From: Nanobdellota archaeon
GTDB taxonomy: Archaea > Nanobdellota > Nanobdellia > Pacearchaeales > GW2011-AR1
Direction of reading: 5' to 3'
Length of the DNA: 64,000 nt
Assembly: GCA_043810695.1 (NCBI GenBank)
Contig: JBDRNV010000002.1
Coordinates: forward strand, 5,015 to 69,014
Part shown: positions 1,211-23,049 of the stretch, piece by piece
How the letters are laid out: every line of letters begins with the position of its first letter
How positions within the stretch are numbered: position 1 is the first letter of the stretch
Position numbers and translations under genes: made by a program
Notes under the pieces: model-generated
The model's database searches: none
The model's input: only the letters and a program-made list of their open reading frames with translations
What the model was told of the DNA's origin: nothing

Positions 1211-1735
1211 ATGCTAAATAAATACAGCAGATACAGGGTTTTAAGGGTTTTTTTGCAAAAACCAACAGAAAGTTTTGGATTAAGGGAAATCGGTCGTCTT
1301 AGCAAATTATCTCCACCATCAGTGATTAAGTATCTAAAAGAGTTTGAATTAGATGGGCTAATAATCAAAACAGAAAAAAAAGGAATTCCCTCTTATCAAG
1401 CAGCCAAAGAAAATGAAGATTTTATCTTTTATAAAAAGGTAGATATTTTATATGAACTTCATAGTTCTGGTCTTGTCGACTATTTGTGGCAGAAATTAGG
1501 CCCAAATGCAATAATTTTATATGGAAGCCATGCAAAAGGGGAAGCTGCAGAAAACTCTGACATTGACATATTTATTATAGGAAAAGATAAAGATATTGTT
1601 CTGGCAGAATTTGAGAAAAAATTAGGTAGAGAAATACATTTGATGTTTGATAATAATGTAAAAAACATTCCGAGTGAACTTAAAAATAACCTAATCAACG
1701 GAATTATATTAAAAGGTTATTTTAAGGTGTTTTAA
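1211..1735 (+). CDS. wHTH + minimal nucleotidyltransferase (MNT-type, HEPN/MNT module)
   Basis: 'ILYGSHAKGEAAENSDIDIFIIG' = GS...DxD NTase motif; N-terminal winged-helix-like region; paralog at 2841..3368. Confidence 0.75.
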   Translation: MLNKYSRYRVLRVFLQKPTESFGLREIGRLSKLSPPSVIKYLKEFELDGLIIKTEKKGIPSYQAAKENEDFIFYKKVDILYELHSSGLVDYLWQKLGPNAIILYGSHAKGEAAENSDIDIFIIGKDKDIVLAEFEKKLGREIHLMFDNNVKNIPSELKNNLINGIILKGYFKVF

Positions 1736-2139
1736 TGATAATCAAAGTTTTTCCAGATAAAGAAAAAGCAAAGTCTATTCTAAAAATGGCCAATTCAAGG
1801 GAGCAATTTCTGAAAGACATGGAAAAAATAAAAATTTATTCAACAATAATTACTGAGAATTATTACGAAATAATTAAGGAGCTTTGTATAGCTGTAATCT
1901 TAACTGATGGTTATAAGGCCATTGGAGAAAATGCTCATAAAGAATTAATTGATTTTATGCGAAGATACAAAGAATTCAATGATTTTGAGATAGAAACAAC
2001 CTAGGATCTTAGGATAAGAAGAAATAAAAGCGCCTATGAAGGAAAGCAAATAGAACTAGTTTATCTGGAAAATAACAGGAATACTTTAATTAAGATAATT
2101 TCTAAACTAAAGAAAATTTTAGAGGGAAAACTTGACTAA
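1735..2139 (+). pseudogene. HEPN-domain partner of MNT, interrupted by in-frame TAG at 2002-2004
   Basis: 89-aa ORF stops at TAG; same frame continues 'DLRIRRNKSAYEGKQ...' (HEPN-like R-x-x-RN motif) to TAA at 2137-2139; start overlaps MNT stop (TAATG). Confidence 0.55.
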
Positions 2140-2161
2140 ACAATTATTATCTCTAAAATCC

Positions 2162-2203
2162 TTTTCCACAACACCAGTTTCCCATCTCTGTCCCATAAGA
2201 AAA
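2162..2203. repeat. copy b of nuclease-gene 3' end
   Basis: ttttccacaacaccagtttcccatctctgtcccataagaaaa; 34/41 identical to 3432-3472. Confidence 0.85.
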
Positions 2204-2233
2204 GAAACATTTATAAATAACTTACCATTATTT

Positions 2234-2575
2234 ATGTGTATGAAAATTAGTAAGGAAGACTTGCTTCGCATAAACAAAGGATTTGGAGGAAATCTTAGAA
2301 GCGACTCAAGTCTTGATTTTGCTATTGATAAAATAAACAGCTCAAAATTAGGGTTTTATAATAGATTAGCCTATTTATGGAGAGCAATATTAGTTGACCA
2401 CCCCTTTTCAGATGGTAATAAGAGAACAGCTGTATTTTTAGCATATGCTTTTGCAGAAGAAAGCAAGAAATATGTAGATAGAGATATATTAGTTCATCAA
2501 GCTATTTCAATAGCAAAGAAAAATATCACCAGTATAAGACAAATAGAATGGAGACTTAAAAATGCAATTAAATAA
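2234..2575 (+). CDS. Fic/Doc-family toxin
   Basis: 'HPFSDGNKRTA' = Fic motif HxFx[DE]GNxR; the tracked ORF start at 2132 is a TTG that reads through the repeat, ATG at 2234/2240 is more plausible. Confidence 0.75.
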   Translation: MCMKISKEDLLRINKGFGGNLRSDSSLDFAIDKINSSKLGFYNRLAYLWRAILVDHPFSDGNKRTAVFLAYAFAEESKKYVDRDILVHQAISIAKKNITSIRQIEWRLKNAIK

Positions 2576-2774
2576 AAAAATAATTAATAGGATATTGAAA
2601 AAGAATAAAAAAGCATTTGAAATGCTAGAAAATTACGATAAAACAAGAGAACTTCCATTTCAAAGAAAAAGAATAGATATTACTCTATCAGTGGAAACAC
2701 TAAGAAAACTTAAGGAATTAAAGGAAAAAACAAAAAAATCAATTTCCCAAATTATTGAAGAAAAAATTCAATAG
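2562..2774 (+). CDS. putative ribbon-helix-helix antitoxin-like protein
   Basis: 70 aa; 'RIDITLSVETLRKLKELKEKT' resembles an RHH beta-strand/helix; overlaps Doc stop. Confidence 0.4.
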   Translation: MQLNKKIINRILKKNKKAFEMLENYDKTRELPFQRKRIDITLSVETLRKLKELKEKTKKSISQIIEEKIQ

Positions 2775-2775
2775 C

Positions 2776-2815
2776 TTTTCCAAAAAATCAATTTCCCCTT
2801 CATCCTTCAACAAAA
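2776..2815. repeat. copy c of nuclease-gene 3' end (most diverged)
   Basis: ttttccaaaaaatcaatttccccttcatccttcaacaaaa followed by catttatata. Confidence 0.6.
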
Positions 2816-2840
2816 CATTTATATACCAAAGGGTACTAAA

Positions 2841-3368
2841 ATGTATATTATGGTACAAAGAAGTATACCGAGCTTATTTGCAGTTATTGAAGTCTTCTTT
2901 CAAGAGCCCACAAAAATACATTTTATCAAAGAAATAAGCCGAGAGATAAAACTTGCTCATACTTCTGTGAGAAACATAATAAAATACCTGGAGAAAAATC
3001 ATATAATTGTTAAGAAAAAATCAAAACCATTTGACGGATACACTGCAGATAGAGAGAATGAGGATTTTATCTTCTATAAAAAGGCTTACAATATTTATTC
3101 GTTGAAAGATATAACCCGTGAAATAGTAAATTCTGTTTATCCTTCAGCAATCGTTCTTTTCGGGTCTTATTCTCGCGGAGAAGATGTAGAATCAAGTGAT
3201 ATTGACATATTTGTTCTTTCTAAAGCAAAAAAAGAGATAAATGTCTCCCCATTTGAAAAAAGCCTTAAGAGAAAAATAAATATAATGACTCTCGACAGAA
3301 TTGAAAAACTTGATGAATTAATAAGGAAAAAAATAAATAACGGGACTGTTTTGCATGGTGAAATATGA
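2841..3368 (+). CDS. wHTH + minimal nucleotidyltransferase (second MNT)
   Basis: 'VLFGSYSRGEDVESSDIDIFVLS'; same architecture as 1211..1735. Confidence 0.75.
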   Translation: MYIMVQRSIPSLFAVIEVFFQEPTKIHFIKEISREIKLAHTSVRNIIKYLEKNHIIVKKKSKPFDGYTADRENEDFIFYKKAYNIYSLKDITREIVNSVYPSAIVLFGSYSRGEDVESSDIDIFVLSKAKKEINVSPFEKSLKRKINIMTLDRIEKLDELIRKKINNGTVLHGEI

Positions 3369-4717: not shown

Positions 4718-5713
4718 ATGCCAGAGATGAGTAATATGATTCTGCTTGCAGATAAGAATTCTAAAGCTTGGAATTTTGCAGAGAAAATTCAAAATTATAT
4801 CTTAACTCAAAAAGGAAATTTGATTCCTCTTCAAGAAGTAGAAATAACTCATTTCAGAAATGGAGAACTTAACGCTCATGTTCCAGAGAATGTTAGAAAA
4901 AAAGATGTTTACTTTATTCACGATTCCACAAAAAATCCACAGGAATGGTGGATAGAACTTATTTTGATAAGAGATCTTTTGCTTTCTTCATCTGCAGGCT
5001 CTATTACTCTTGTTCTTCCAAATATGCTGTATAGCAGGCAGGATAGAAAAGACAAACCTCATGTTCCAATATCAGCCCGAGCTCTTGCAGAATCAATATC
5101 TCAGGGGGTAAGCAGAATTATCACAATGGATTTGCATGCTCCTCAGATTCAAGGATTCTACCCAGCAACAACTCCTTTAGACAATCTTTACAGTTTTCCA
5201 GAAGCTGTTGACTTTCTAAGAAAAAACTTTTATTCAGATTTAGATAATATTGCAATTATTGCTACAGATGCAGGAGGAGCAGGACGTGCAAGAGCTTTTT
5301 TAAAAAAAATGAACAAAATTCAAGAAAAGGATGTTCTAAAACAAAAATATTCTCTTGCTTTAATGGATAAGATAAGGACAAAAACAGGAGAAGTAGAAGA
5401 AATGAAATTAATAGGAGATATTACTAATCAAAATATTTTAGTTGTTGAGGATATTATTGACTCTGGCGGAACATTATGCAAAGCAGCAGAATTATTAAAG
5501 AAAAACGGAGCAAAAAAATTATTCTGCTATGCAACACATGGAATTTTTACAAAAGGCGTATCAGAGCTTTCTAATTGTTATGATGTTATTCTAACAAGCA
5601 ATACTCATTATTCAGAGAACTCAAACGTGAAGATTGTTGATGTTTCCCCTTTATTTGCAGAAGCTGTTTATAGAGCACAAAAAGGACTTTCTATTTCTGA
5701 ATTGTTTGGATAG
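4718..5713 (+). CDS. prs: ribose-phosphate pyrophosphokinase
   Basis: 'FRNGELNAHV', 'RQDRKD', 'VVEDIIDSGGTL' PRPP-synthase motifs. Confidence 0.9.
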   Translation: MPEMSNMILLADKNSKAWNFAEKIQNYILTQKGNLIPLQEVEITHFRNGELNAHVPENVRKKDVYFIHDSTKNPQEWWIELILIRDLLLSSSAGSITLVLPNMLYSRQDRKDKPHVPISARALAESISQGVSRIITMDLHAPQIQGFYPATTPLDNLYSFPEAVDFLRKNFYSDLDNIAIIATDAGGAGRARAFLKKMNKIQEKDVLKQKYSLALMDKIRTKTGEVEEMKLIGDITNQNILVVEDIIDSGGTLCKAAELLKKNGAKKLFCYATHGIFTKGVSELSNCYDVILTSNTHYSENSNVKIVDVSPLFAEAVYRAQKGLSISELFG

Positions 5714-5715
5714 AT
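5679..5715. repeat. prs 3' end (genuine), left copy of a 37-nt perfect direct repeat
   Basis: aaaaaggactttctatttctgaattgtttggatagat, identical to 6528-6564. Confidence 0.9.
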
Positions 5716-5739
5716 ATCTTTTGAATTAAAATTTAGATT

Positions 5740-5760
5740 ATGAGGGTGAAAGGATTCGAC
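5740..5760 (-). pseudogene. fragment of the tRNA-Leu 3' end (T-arm/acceptor)
   Basis: atgagggtgaaaggattcgac vs atgcgggtgaaaggattcgaac at 6573-6594. Confidence 0.7.
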
Positions 5761-5860
5761 AAAAAGGAATTGCGAATTATTATACAAATCTTTAAATATG
5801 TATATTATTTTTGAGCGGTTGTTTAAAATTATATTCCAAAAATAATTCAGGACAAATAAA

Positions 5861-6247
5861 ATGAAATTTAGCTCAACACCAGCGATGCAGGCAATAGGTT
5901 GTGTGACTAGTTTAGTTAGCCTAGGTGCTTTTGCAAGTGGTATTTATCAAGGGATTTCTAATTCAAAAGGTATTGAAATAGAACCAAATACGCTAATATT
6001 AATAAGATATGGCCCTATAGCGCTTAATGGTCTTTTAGGAATTCCTGCAGCACATGCTTTTTCAAGTGATAAAGAAAATTTAGAAGAAATGGTTAATGGT
6101 GCACCACCAAACTTAGATCAACAAGAAGCAGAAGGATGTTCAAAAAGTTATGCAGGTTGCACTTTTCCTTTTATAGGTGTTGTAGCTACATCTCTTATTG
6201 AATATGCTGGTTATTTGGTCGGCGGTGCTATTGGTGCATCAGTATGA
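5861..6247 (+). CDS. Gly/Ala-rich membrane protein, unknown
   Basis: 128 aa, hydrophobic N- and C-terminal segments; ATGA-coupled to yidD. Confidence 0.4.
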   Translation: MKFSSTPAMQAIGCVTSLVSLGAFASGIYQGISNSKGIEIEPNTLILIRYGPIALNGLLGIPAAHAFSSDKENLEEMVNGAPPNLDQQEAEGCSKSYAGCTFPFIGVVATSLIEYAGYLVGGAIGASV

Positions 6248-6507
6248 AACTAGAAAAAATACTTCAATCATTAGAGATATTATCAATTAAAGGATATAAG
6301 AAAACAACTTCTCCTATATACTCTCTTTTAAATTCTTTTAATATCAATCCTTTTCGATGCAGATATACACCTTCTTGTTCACAATATGCTGAACAAGTAA
6401 TCAAAGAATGGGGTGCCTATAAAGGAACGTTTATGGCTTTAAAGAGAATTATGAGATGTAATCCTTATGGTGGATTTGGTTATGACCCTGTTCCTAAGAA
6501 AAAATAA
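6244..6507 (+). CDS. yidD: YidD-like membrane protein insertion efficiency factor
   Basis: 'CRYTPSCSQYAEQVIKEWGAYKGTFMALKRIMRCNPYGGFGYDPVP' matches the conserved YidD core. Confidence 0.75.
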   Translation: MKLEKILQSLEILSIKGYKKTTSPIYSLLNSFNINPFRCRYTPSCSQYAEQVIKEWGAYKGTFMALKRIMRCNPYGGFGYDPVPKKK

Positions 6508-6527
6508 TATGCAAAGGTAGGGGTAGA

Positions 6528-6564
6528 AAAAAGGACTTTCTATTTCTGAATTGTTTGGATAGAT
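6528..6564. repeat. second (non-coding) copy of the prs 3' end
   Basis: 37/37 identity with 5679-5715, stop codon included. Confidence 0.9.
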
Positions 6565-6573
6565 TCAAAGCCA

Positions 6574-6657
6574 TGCGGGTGAAAGGATTCGAACCTTCGC
6601 AGGCACTAAGCCACAAGATCTTAAGTCTTGTCCGTTTGACCGCTCCGGCACACCCGC
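6574..6657 (-). tRNA. tRNA-Leu (anticodon UAA), class II, no encoded CCA
   Basis: Hand fold: GCGGGTG acceptor, anticodon stem CAAGA/TCTTG with loop CTTAAGA, long variable arm, T-arm GAAGGTTCGAATCCTTT. Confidence 0.85.
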
Positions 6658-6798
6658 ATGAATGGCGCCGCTGCGACGTTCATCACGCTACAGCGTTTGT
6701 TGTATTTCTCAGAAGTTATGTTGCTTAAAAAAGTTTCTTATTAACTTAATAGCTTAATTTAGAGCAACCTTTATTAATACTTTATACTTTTTTTCTTT

Positions 6799-8505
6799 AT
6801 GAAAAGAGCTGTGATTAATGTTCTGAAAAAAGCACTGAATTCTAAAGGAGTTCATTATACAGAAGAGCAGATAGAAAAACTTATTGAAATTCCTCCTAGT
6901 TTAGGAATGGGGGATTATGCTTTTCCATGTTTCTCGCTTTCTGATAAATTAAAAGATGATCCTGCTAGAATAGCTATTGAAATAAGAGAAGAAATAGGAG
7001 AACCTTCTGCAACAGAATTTGCAGATATAGAAACAGAAGGTCCTTATTTGAATTTTTTTCTTAATCGAAAAAGTCTTGCAAGACAAACCGTTTGGGATAT
7101 AATAACCTGGAAAAAAAATTATGGAAAAGGAAAATCAGGAAAAAGAAAAAGAACAATGGTTGAATTTCCAAGCCCAAATACAAACAAACCATTGCATTTA
7201 GGACATTTAAGAAACATGGCAATTGGAGAAAGCATTTCAAGAATTCTTGAGTTTAATGGGGAAAAAGTTATACGAGCAAATCTTAATAGCGACAGAGGAA
7301 TTCATATCTGCAAATCAATGCTCGCGTATCAAAAATGGGGAAGAGAAAAAACTCCAGATAAGAAAAAAATAAAATCAGACCACTTTGTTGGAAATTTTTA
7401 TGTTAAATTTGAAAAAAAGAAGAAAAAGAAACTTGAAGAAGAAGCTCAGGAATTGCTTAGAAAATGGGAAGCAGGAGATAAACGAACTCTTCTATTATGG
7501 AAGTTAATGAATAACTGGGCTTTAGAAGGTTTTGCAGAAACTTACAAAAAATTTGGAATAAAGCATGATGTAACTTATTTTGAAAGCAAAATATATTCAA
7601 AAGGAAAAGAAATTATCGAATACGGAATAAAAAAGAGAATATTTGAAAAGTCAAAAAGTGGAGAAACAAAAATTGATTTAAAAAAAGAAGGTTTGGGAGA
7701 AAAAATTCTTTTAAGAAAAGATGGAACAGCTTTGTATATTATACCTGATTTAGCTTTGGCAAAAATAAAATTCAAAGATTATAAACTAAATCGTTCTATT
7801 TATGTAGTCGGTAATGAGCAGGAATATCATTTCAAAGTTTTATTTTCTATTCTCGAAAGATTAGGATTTCGAAAAGAAGGCAAAGAAATGAAGCATCTTT
7901 CATATGGAATGGTTAATCTTCCTTCTGGACGAATGAAATCAAGAGAAGGAATTGTTGTTGATGCAGATGATTTGATTAAAGATGTAAAATCTATTGCAGA
8001 AAAAGAACTTAAAAAAAGAGAAAAACTCCGTAAGACAGAACTCGAAAAAAGAAGTTCTATAATTGCTTTGGCTGCAATAAAATATATGCTATTAAAACAA
8101 GATATAAAGAAAAATATACTTTTCAATCCAAAAGAATCTGTTTCTTTTGATGGTGATACAGGACCATATATTCAGTATAGTTATGCAAGAGCAGGTTCTA
8201 TATTAAAAAAAGCACCTGAACAGAAAAAATTTGAGGTTTATGAACTAGAGGACAAAGAACTTGAGCTTGTAAAAAAACTTTCTCAGTTTCCAGAAGCTGT
8301 TTTGAATGCAGGCAAAAATTTAAATCCAGCAATTATTGCAAATTATTCTTATGAACTTGCTCAAATATTCAACGAATTTTATCATACCTGCAAAGTTATA
8401 GGTTCTGAACAAGAAGCATTTCGACTTACTCTTGTTCAATCTTTCAGGCAAGTAATAAAAAATTCTTTGAAACTGCTAGGAATTGATGTAGTTGAGAAAA
8501 TGTAA
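6799..8505 (+). CDS. argS: arginyl-tRNA synthetase
   Basis: 'PSPNTNKPLHLGHLRN' HIGH region; C-terminal 'YIQYSYARAGSILKKA' anticodon-binding region. Confidence 0.9.
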   Translation: MKRAVINVLKKALNSKGVHYTEEQIEKLIEIPPSLGMGDYAFPCFSLSDKLKDDPARIAIEIREEIGEPSATEFADIETEGPYLNFFLNRKSLARQTVWDIITWKKNYGKGKSGKRKRTMVEFPSPNTNKPLHLGHLRNMAIGESISRILEFNGEKVIRANLNSDRGIHICKSMLAYQKWGREKTPDKKKIKSDHFVGNFYVKFEKKKKKKLEEEAQELLRKWEAGDKRTLLLWKLMNNWALEGFAETYKKFGIKHDVTYFESKIYSKGKEIIEYGIKKRIFEKSKSGETKIDLKKEGLGEKILLRKDGTALYIIPDLALAKIKFKDYKLNRSIYVVGNEQEYHFKVLFSILERLGFRKEGKEMKHLSYGMVNLPSGRMKSREGIVVDADDLIKDVKSIAEKELKKREKLRKTELEKRSSIIALAAIKYMLLKQDIKKNILFNPKESVSFDGDTGPYIQYSYARAGSILKKAPEQKKFEVYELEDKELELVKKLSQFPEAVLNAGKNLNPAIIANYSYELAQIFNEFYHTCKVIGSEQEAFRLTLVQSFRQVIKNSLKLLGIDVVEKM

Positions 8506-20449: not shown

Positions 20450-20587
20450 CGCCTCAGGCAGGAATCGAACCTGCGAACCCCGAAGGGTCGGGATCTTTGC
20501 GTTTTCTCCAATAAAGGAGATGTCGTAAGAAGAACCTTGGTTCTTTTTACTTAGCAATCCCGTGCAATACCATTATGCGACTGAGGC
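20450..20587 (-). tRNA. tRNA-Ser (anticodon GCU) with ~57-nt intron
   Basis: Hand fold: GCCTCAG acceptor, CGGGA/TCCCG anticodon stem, loop TTGCTA|A, long variable arm ACCCTTCGGGGTTC, T-arm GCAGGTTCGATTCCTGC; 138 nt minus 81 nt mature. Confidence 0.75.
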
Positions 20588-22248: not shown

Positions 22249-23049
22249 ATGGAAACCGAGAATCTGGGATATGTTAAAGGATTGGGAGAAATTCATAGAA
22301 TTAATGCTCCATTTGTAGTGCAATTGGGAGCTTTTAGAGAAATAGGAATAAAGGCACCTGTAAGCGTAAGAGATACTTCTTTAATAAGGCTCAGCGGAAA
22401 ATCCACAGAAGGAACAAGGACATGTCACGCTCCTGTTTACCTTAAGAATTCTCCTACAATAGTTGCGAGAATGTCTCCTTTGGTAAGAAATTTAGGAATG
22501 GCACAAAAAGCAGTGAATGCTCACAAAAGCAGTGAATATCCTGTTTTTGGTAGCTCGATTTATGCCCAGTGGGAAAAGATTGCAAAACAGGACAAGGGAA
22601 AGAAGCCTGAGAAAAGAAGGGCAATCATACTTCCTGAAAGAAAAGATTTTGACATACATAGGGATTCAGACGAAGCAGAATTTTTCTGGCAGGACAAAAG
22701 AAAAGAATATTTTAAAAGATTTGTTTCAGCAGATAAAGTCATAGCGTATCAAATCGACCCAGAAACGGTTGATTCTCAAGATGGAGCAATTGTGAATTAT
22801 CTCTGGTTCGACGATCCCGAGGATGGTTCTTACTTGTACCTTAGGAGCAGGAGCTTGTACTATGACGACAGGGCTTTCGGGGTGTTGGAGAAAACCAGCG
22901 AAGCTGGTTTGCAAAAAATTTCAGGAAATTTGGTCAGGCATTATACTCAAAGAGAAGCAAAAAAATATACTAATATTCTTCAGGATGTTATGTCTGGAAA
23001 AACAGGAACTTCAAAATTAGAAAAAGTGCTTAAGCATTTTAAAAAATAA
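22249..23049 (+). CDS. DGR-type variable (target) protein candidate
   Basis: Contains the variable repeat 22801-22872 near its C-terminus; locally higher G+C by eye than neighbours. Confidence 0.6.
   Translation: METENLGYVKGLGEIHRINAPFVVQLGAFREIGIKAPVSVRDTSLIRLSGKSTEGTRTCHAPVYLKNSPTIVARMSPLVRNLGMAQKAVNAHKSSEYPVFGSSIYAQWEKIAKQDKGKKPEKRRAIILPERKDFDIHRDSDEAEFFWQDKRKEYFKRFVSADKVIAYQIDPETVDSQDGAIVNYLWFDDPEDGSYLYLRSRSLYYDDRAFGVLEKTSEAGLQKISGNLVRHYTQREAKKYTNILQDVMSGKTGTSKLEKVLKHFKK
22801..22872 (+). other. variable repeat (VR) of a diversity-generating-retroelement-like pair
   Basis: 72-nt ungapped match to 23310-23381; 10 of 11 mismatches lie at adenines of the other copy. Confidence 0.75.

Follow-up and report, generated by a model that had tools for sequence, protein, structure and literature searches.

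The DNA analysed here, a 64-kb stretch from a Nanobdellota archaeon (the whole of which we call the window), carries a small two-gene islet between prs, the gene for ribose-phosphate diphosphokinase, and a convergent gene for tRNA-Leu(UAA). Each side of the islet is bordered by one copy of a block that combines the end of prs with the 3' end of the tRNA gene, and this interleaved composite repeat is what circular DNA leaves behind when it inserts by a single (Campbell-type) crossover. On balance, we lean toward a scenario in which the circle was inserted by a tRNA-targeting recombinase acting in trans or since lost. Its cargo is an archaeal gene module and its immediate donor was a close relative.

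Structure of the Junction

A 37-nt direct repeat, R37 (AAAAAGGACTTTCTATTTCTGAATTGTTTGGATAGAT), was found at 5679-5715 and 6528-6564 (plus strand), with zero mismatches between the copies. These were the only two matches to R37 in the 64 kb at up to three mismatches, and there were none in 100 shuffles. The left copy includes the last 35 nt of prs with the stop codon TAG (5711-5713), reading as prs codons ...KGLSISELFG, the stop and 2 further nt. The right copy is non-coding and follows closely on an in-frame TAG (6524-6526). After each copy comes the 3' end of tRNA-Leu(UAA). On the right, this is the intact gene on the minus strand (6574-6657; Rfam RF00005, 59 bits; 6573-6658 by ARAGORN), and on the left a displaced, degenerate fragment, also on the minus strand (5740-5759). 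The latter matches 6573-6592, which comprises the last 19 nt of the tRNA at its 3' end and one base beyond the discriminator, at 19 of 20 positions. No shuffle had two matches to the tRNA piece, and the local alignment score was 35 against a shuffle maximum of 26. The repeats are not due to chance. An earlier note on this DNA (the original prediction) had already described the perfect repeat with the prs stop codon, the tRNA-Leu 3' end after each copy and a two-gene insert of about 770 bp; we recovered all three, R37 to the exact nucleotide.

Read from left to right, the prs end and the tRNA piece come first, then the insert, then a second prs end and a second tRNA piece. Because two independent insertions yield only a nested order (a b b a) or one with the repeats side by side (a a b b), a single composite block holding both pieces was duplicated in one event. 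The duplication amounts to 37 + 20 nt, and its spacers are unequal: 24 nt separate the prs end from the tRNA piece on the left (5716-5739), and 8 nt on the right (6565-6572, read from the sequence as TCAAAGCC). The two spacers are unrelated, the similarity between them being not significant in local alignment (249 of 500 shuffles reached the score). We dropped two candidate additional repeats: a match to TTTTGAATT as a degenerate repeat copy in the 24-nt spacer, for which 249 of 500 shuffles were as good, and a third copy of the start of R37 at 5759-5778, based on the 10-nt match ACAAAAAGGA at 5759, for which 45 of 500 shuffles were as good.

The block has recognizable limits. On the prs side, it stops where the tRNA strand has five or six consecutive T. 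Read on the minus strand, the right copy of R37 supplies the trailer of tRNA-Leu up to this oligo-T run, as at an uninterrupted junction, and the duplicated block corresponds to the tRNA 3' end and its trailer as far as this likely terminator. On the tRNA side, the repeat extends from one base past the discriminator to the inside of the 7-nt T-loop, a location listed among the usual limits of identity blocks at tRNA genes (Williams 2002 sublocation survey, as cited in PMC9897764). The displaced fragment covers the base past the discriminator, the discriminator, the 3' strands of the acceptor and of the T-stem, and six of the seven T-loop bases. It carries one fixed substitution, at position 5743, which would break the acceptor pair 2-71, and one polymorphic substitution, at position 5750.

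The insert proper spans 768 nt (5760-6527) and contains two open reading frames (ORFs) of 128 and 87 aa that overlap in ATGA, whereas the inserted unit, one copy of R37 included, measures 849 bp (5716-6564, or equivalently 5679-6527). The first ORF (5861-6247, plus strand) encodes a protein that we call the partner, and the second (6244-6507, plus strand) a YidD homologue. They are preceded by a leader (5760-5860, plus strand) with an archaeal TATA-like motif, TTTAAATA, at 5791-5798, about 65 nt before the ATG, which may act as a promoter. A sigma-70 promoter and terminator scan of the region was uninformative for an archaeon. The G+C contents (GC) of the two islet genes are 0.37 and 0.295 and their GC at third codon positions (GC3) 0.13 and 0.17, for a GC3 of 0.10-0.26 in host genes; the composition of the islet is indistinguishable from that of the host. 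The left host flank consists of prs (4718-5713, plus strand; 331 aa; Pfam Pribosyltran_N, Pribosyl_synth, and Pribosyltran; TIGR01251, 237 bits) and the right host flank of argS (arginyl-tRNA synthetase; 6799-8505, plus strand; Pfam).

Host and Independent Assembly

Since the window encodes archaeal proteins (RNA polymerase subunits of the Rpb1/Rpb2 type, aEF-1alpha, aEF-2, TrmB, a diphthine-synthase-like methylase, and an archaeal-type D-aminoacyl-tRNA deacylase) and the closest prs loci carry the labels Candidatus Pacearchaeota, Woesearchaeota or Nanoarchaeota, the host is a low-GC (30%) archaeon of the DPANN group.

The arrangement was identical in a 3-kb k127 contig from another sample (L001; ENA ERZ928008), which is 99.4% identical to the window. 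This k = 127 contig reads through both 37-nt copies and through the unique stretch that separates them. For a metagenomic source with a short repeat, a false join via a repeated k-mer would be conceivable, but it is hardly credible here, because the order is the same in two assemblies made independently from different data sets.

Nineteen differences separate the window from L001. Seventeen are concentrated in a 221-nt patch of prs (5371-5591), where divergence reaches 7.7%, and only two occur in the next 2.7 kb, one of them in the displaced tRNA fragment (the polymorphism at 5750), which fits neutral decay of this fragment. The prs patch looks like a short gene-conversion tract from a diverged relative. 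Homologous exchange is active in this population, because such a patch separates two otherwise near-identical strains. The last 91 nt of L001 (2970-3060) are unrelated to the argS of the window at the same position, and correspond either to a chimeric contig end or to another recombination breakpoint.

The Junction in Related Genomes

We compared the junction with 14 related prs loci, whose prs is 57-70% identical to that of the window. Neither the partner nor YidD was present at the prs/tRNA-Leu junction in any of the 14, and the order SNase, prs, tRNA-Leu(UAA), argS was largely kept in the relatives extending far enough (L005, L087, and L173). No prs more than 70% identical was found in public data, besides the truncated L001, by exact-protein look-up, by genome and metagenome scans or by a search of 5.8 billion proteins. 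The look-up of an uninterrupted junction in relatives, proposed in the original prediction, was thus answered at the level of these 14 loci, which lack the module, but it produced no empty site from a close relative.

Four of the eight relatives with a tRNA-Leu mapped beside prs have scars of their own, made of tRNA fragments. In L086, a 15/15 copy of its own tRNA-Leu 3' end lies 12 nt after the prs stop, with the intact gene 155 nt further on. In L173, the tRNA 3' end is repeated, exactly over 13 nt and at 81% identity over 32 nt, and a 23/23 copy of the 5' end is also present, while L088 has a 15/15 copy of the tRNA 5' end together with a 15-nt repeat of the prs stop region. In L087, two 140-nt tandem units (4955-5245; 88% identical, with a 151-nt period) start 9 nt before the prs stop; beyond them lie a 131-aa ORF of unknown function and, after it, tRNA-Leu. 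A tRNA-Leu fragment suspected in each of these units was below the score threshold and we do not claim it.

Contigs encoding an identical prs protein also differed from each other at this place: L172 and L175 are without, and L173 and L174 with, a 157-nt insert flanked by the tRNA 3' end, so that the presence of an insert at this tRNA end is naturally polymorphic. Beyond tRNA-Leu (from about 6170), RHS/YD-repeat genes are found in one contig and argS and TrmB in the other (L172 versus L173). Since the gene content beyond the tRNA differs and L173 has the 23-nt copy of the tRNA 5' end, both sides of tRNA-Leu are variable in this population. The prs/tRNA-Leu(UAA) junction is a recombination hot spot across the clade. 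The original prediction of an integration whose attachment site spans the convergent prs/tRNA junction agrees with all these data: the duplicated block covers both genes, the module is absent at the 14 related loci, other lineages have tRNA-fragment scars and the sister population is polymorphic for the 157-nt insert.

Could the module be ancestral at this site, the repeats having arisen in place when a local duplication or gene conversion put a copy of the prs end beside the tRNA, with no incoming DNA? The host-like composition of the islet, its presence in both known strains and the tandem duplications including the prs stop in relatives (the 140-nt units of L087 and the 15-nt repeat of L088) are compatible with this explanation, which we nevertheless consider unlikely. 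The module is missing from the junction in 14/14 related loci, the flanking order being kept where the contigs reach, and it occupies unrelated loci in three other lineages (see below). Moreover, a tandem duplication would repeat the whole unit and not its ends alone, and an interleaved composite repeat with a tRNA fragment is a specific signature of a single crossover.

Several other observations were made at these loci. The inserts of about 140 nt that separate the tRNA-Leu 3' fragment from the intact tRNA in L086 (5015-5154) and L173 (6095-6219), two distinct lineages, are homologous, with a 31/37 patch around TTTTAAGCGAC whose score was reached by 0 of 200 shuffles; they may have been left by a single family of elements or represent a small RNA that is conserved. 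The islet of the window does not contain this patch, and four viral matches to the motif, without tRNAs, were judged due to chance. The prs-adjacent tRNA-Leu(UAA) is on the same strand as prs in L005 (7218-7301), L084 (2166-2230), and L085 (2233-2319), and convergent with prs in the window, L086-L088, and L172-L175. These orientations, compared between distant relatives, suggest repeated local inversions. In L005, 21 nt from the 3' end of tRNA-Thr(CGU) are also perfectly repeated (7069-7089 and 7155-7175, 86 nt apart), which makes one more scar of a tRNA end in this neighbourhood. Finally, the prs end of L088 is identical to R37 at 33 of 35 positions despite only 57% identity of the prs proteins. 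We did not rely on this similarity as a sign of elements overwriting prs ends; the C-terminal peptide QKGLSISELF is conserved across the clade.

The YidD Homologue and Its Partner

The 87-aa product of the second islet gene matched the YidD profiles well above their cut-offs (PF01809, 81.3 bits for a cut-off of 27; TIGR00278, 60.5 bits for a cut-off of 40), as originally predicted. In an alignment with archaeal and non-archaeal homologues, it exhibited the conserved motifs CR[YF]xP[ST]CSxY ... RCxP ... DPVP (an Escherichia coli YidD sequence served in this alignment only as a visual aid and no conclusion rests on it). Its closest homologues (58-67% identity) are archaeal, and the next matches (44-48%) fall outside this archaeal subgroup. 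A 9-residue insertion that precedes the CRY motif is common to the four archaeal YidDs and absent from the three sequences compared from outside the subgroup, and the N-terminus of the four is less hydrophobic, with a maximum 11-residue hydropathy of 0.7-1.3 versus 1.7-2.3 in three non-archaeal homologues. The gene has prs, tRNA-Leu and the partner as neighbours, with neither rnpA nor yidC, and the other archaeal copies likewise directly follow a partner gene.

The partner (128 aa) has no Pfam or NCBIfam match. Its family is tiny, with 13 homologues among 5.8 billion proteins and 48 cluster representatives among 1.84 billion; members are 110-140 aa long with one exception of 218 aa, and those with a taxonomic label are all archaeal. 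The motifs SGIYQG, IRYGP, and EYxGY are conserved in the alignment. AlphaFold2 predicted three long helices with a mean confidence (pLDDT) of 89, and a fold search of the PDB gave no significant match (best E-value 0.8). This ORF had been described as a Gly-rich membrane protein. The first part was confirmed (12.5% Gly), and the second can be retained only as probable: the three hydrophobic helices peak at 1.42-1.58, just under the usual Kyte-Doolittle threshold for transmembrane segments.

The pair was found in three other archaeal lineages (L002, L003, and L179), each time at an unrelated locus with no tRNA genes nearby; L002 and L003 were also checked for flanking repeats and had none. YidD follows within 0-10 nt in the four partners closest to that of the window (about 50% identity), but not in the distant ones (35-47%), and the GC of the loci in the four lineages with the pair ranges from 30 to 49%. 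The partner-YidD pair is an established archaeal (DPANN) module. From the sequences, the two proteins may act together at the membrane, the partner possibly providing an anchor that is missing from these YidDs. In L170 (1261-4445), a partner-family gene lies directly downstream of secF and secD and is not followed by YidD; this adjacency hints at a link between the partner family and protein translocation. The cargo may have a role in membrane insertion.

YidD is overwhelmingly a bacterial family, and the bacterial type of the gene had been taken in the original prediction as a sign of foreign origin. This part of the prediction did not hold: the window protein belongs to an archaeal YidD subgroup with the 9-residue insertion, it is accompanied by an archaeal partner in four lineages, and its GC and GC3 are host-like. 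A direct recent transfer from a bacterium could be argued from the general distribution of YidD and from the nearest matches outside the archaeal subgroup (44-48% identity), the one whose context was examined (P0005, in L178) being surrounded by bacterial-looking genes, e.g., SLT and SPOUT methyltransferase. We consider such a transfer very unlikely, given the archaeal affiliation of the closest YidDs (58-67%) with their common 9-residue insertion, the coupling to a partner whose labelled members are archaeal, the GC3 matching the host and the copy of the archaeon's own prs end carried by the insert. The data would agree better with a single old gain of YidD in a DPANN lineage than with a fresh import.

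Probable Mode of Insertion and Origin

In the scenario that we favor, an 849-bp DNA would have entered the convergent prs/tRNA-Leu(UAA) junction by a single crossover with a circle. The incoming circle would already have borne a junction block of its own, comprising the T-loop, the tRNA 3' end, the trailer and the oligo-T run inside the last prs codons. The crossover would have restored, on the right, a complete tRNA-Leu followed by its native trailer and left the second copy of the block beside prs on the left, where its tRNA piece would now be decaying. The empty junction should then read prs-specific ...TTTATAGAGCAC joined to AAAAAGGACTTTCTATTTCTGAATTGTTTGGATAGAT, then TCAAAGCCATGCGGGTGAAAGG, and the circle or excision junction ...AATATGCAAAGGTAGGGGTAGA, R37, then ATCTTTTGAATTAAAATTTAGATTATGAGGGTG. 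The likeliest catalyst would be a tRNA-targeting site-specific recombinase, supplied in trans or since lost, and the islet itself would be a remnant of a larger element or a miniature passenger moved by functions encoded elsewhere. We favor a recombinase because of the boundary in the T-loop and because of the 13-16-nt repeats at the same tRNA in relatives (L086 and L173), whose length we judged insufficient for homologous recombination. What we infer, rather than see, from this arrangement is the circular intermediate, the enzyme and which of the two copies was born in the host.

Several results speak against this scenario. No integrase or other recombinase was detected in the islet or in the 48 scanned ORFs of the window, nor in the precomputed Pfam annotations of the junction regions of relatives. 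Viral contigs of IMG/VR had no match for R37, the partner or YidD, plasmids had none for the partner and phage records none for the islet. Neither an empty site nor a circular form of the insert was found in public sequences, in which the best prs identity was 70%. The unequal spacers (24 versus 8 nt) imply that the block is not a simple contiguous identity block, which requires an allelic difference between donor and recipient or a later indel. Finally, a perfect 37-nt match would also permit plain homologous recombination.

This last possibility would produce the same topology with no integrase: a circle or a looped-out segment from a conspecific would have recombined homologously within the 37-nt stretch, the 24-nt spacer and the degenerate tRNA piece coming from the donor. 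R37 is indeed perfect and the longest identical stretch, exchange is active in the population (the 7.7%-diverged prs patch between strains otherwise near-identical over 2.7 kb), no recombinase gene was found in the islet and the 48 window ORFs, and the incoming DNA must derive from a genome with the same prs end, since that of the relatives differs at two or more of 35 positions. However, this explanation leaves unaccounted for both the end of the block in the T-loop and the repeats of 13-16 nt in L086 and L173, and it still needs an earlier event that placed the module beside the junction. In addition, 37 nt is near the lower limit for efficient exchange of the RecA/RadA type. We regard homologous recombination as a serious, though less likely, alternative.

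Three classes of mobile units were rejected. For a transposon or insertion sequence, there are no inverted repeats at the ends and no transposase, and the duplication consists of 37 + 20 nt with unequal spacers. Casposons, which target tRNA 3' ends, are characterized by a Cas1 casposase and terminal inverted repeats and by a target duplication of 14-15 bp; here we found neither a Cas1 casposase gene nor inverted repeats. An integron cassette was ruled out, there being no attC-like sites.

Concerning the origin of the insert, the incoming DNA bore a perfect copy of the last 35 nt of the host's own prs. Because the known relatives differ from the window at at least two of these 35 positions, the immediate donor was a close relative, very probably a conspecific or sibling genome with the module already at the junction. 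The status of the partner-YidD pair as an established DPANN module likewise points to a closely related archaeon, and a bacterium as immediate donor, as the bacterial-type YidD had led one to expect, does not agree with incoming DNA that bore the archaeon's prs end. Most simply, the event was a re-integration or a transfer within the population and not a primary acquisition. That it was recent, as first proposed, is plausible; both known strains (99.4% identical over 3 kb) carry the insert, and the displaced tRNA fragment has by now acquired its two substitutions, one fixed and one polymorphic.

A more speculative proposal, to which we attach little weight, concerns both the junction and its cargo. 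In DPANN archaea of the Pacearchaeota/Woesearchaeota type, the junction would be a clade-wide exchange slot for integrase-less cassettes of 0.15-0.85 kb, served by a recombinase in trans, and the cargo would be a DPANN-specific module for membrane-protein biogenesis. The composite repeat would restore the tRNA, its trailer and the stop codon of the neighbouring gene at each swap, and the partner would replace the bacterial membrane anchor or the association with YidC for a translationally coupled YidD that has lost its hydrophobic N-terminus.

Comparison With Known Systems

Archaeal elements integrated in tRNA genes, with partial tRNA copies and direct repeats, have been documented (PMC9897764), for instance PYG1 of Pyrococcus yayanosii, located in tRNA-Gln with 44-bp direct repeats (PMC9897764; PMC5126054). 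The islet resembles such islands by the intact tRNA and the partial copy in direct orientation with foreign genes between them, by the boundary of the repeat inside the tRNA and by the reuse of the site in related genomes. It differs from PYG1-type islands by its size (0.85 kb, two genes), the lack of an integrase, a composition that is not foreign, a repeat block that runs past the tRNA for another 45 nt, reaching the coding end of the convergent gene, and the unequal spacers. As it lacks two of the usual marks of tRNA islands, an integrase and a foreign composition, the most apt name for it is an integrase-less islet, or a remnant, located at a tRNA hot spot.

In Thermococcales, a pTN3-type integrase drives recombination between tRNA genes (PMC5495485, "Flipping chromosomes in deep-sea archaea"). 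The likeness is that a tRNA gene is a recurrent site of recombination, tRNA-Leu being found here beside prs in either orientation. However, no such integrase was found here and the inversions are proposed from distant relatives. We treat this likeness only as a lead. For Caldiarchaeum subterraneum, heterogeneity at tRNA genes caused by integrating elements in natural archaeal populations has been reported (PMC3293823). This recalls the contigs of a single population with and without inserts at a tRNA gene, as in L172 versus L173, but does not imply a kinship of those elements with the present ones.

Bacterial YidD is encoded by the third gene of the rnpA-yidD-yidC operon and annotated as a membrane protein insertion efficiency factor. 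The window protein resembles it by its strong profile match, the presence of all conserved Cys and Pro motifs and its small size, but differs by its archaeal host, the absence of neighbouring rnpA and yidC, the linkage to a three-helix protein of 125-128 aa, the less hydrophobic N-terminus and the 9-residue insertion. Judged by its sequence, it is a genuine YidD in a non-canonical context.

Other Features of the Window

Just upstream of the SNase-prs block, a toxin-antitoxin-like cluster (1211-3368) encodes two proteins with nucleotidyltransferase domains, a Fic/DOC protein and a ribbon-helix-helix protein. Outside DPANN, the best homologues of the window prs are bacterial (Verrucomicrobiota, Bacillota, and Bacteroidota; 35-40% identity), and this prs may be of bacterial type. 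A 138-nt tRNA on the minus strand (20450-20587), matched by Rfam and missed by ARAGORN, probably contains an intron. On the plus strand, 23091-23307 matches the RT-16 RNA (RF03019; 76 bits, E-value 5e-10), flanked by an unannotated 266-aa ORF (22249-23049, no Pfam hit) and a Rad50/SMC-like gene.

Significance

Insertion at tRNA genes is textbook biology, and the event itself changes little. The islet is a clean, small and fully readable example of the traffic of mobile DNA in DPANN archaea, and it designates the tRNA-Leu(UAA) beside prs as a specific hot spot that can be followed in population metagenomes. In four archaeal lineages YidD, usually seen as bacterial, is in tight linkage with a rare family of three-helix proteins, with which it forms an uncharacterised conserved pair. 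Together with the secF-secD adjacency in L170, this pair provides a concrete lead on how archaea with reduced genomes insert membrane proteins. Most worth following in this analysis are the partner-YidD pair and the hot spot seen across the clade.

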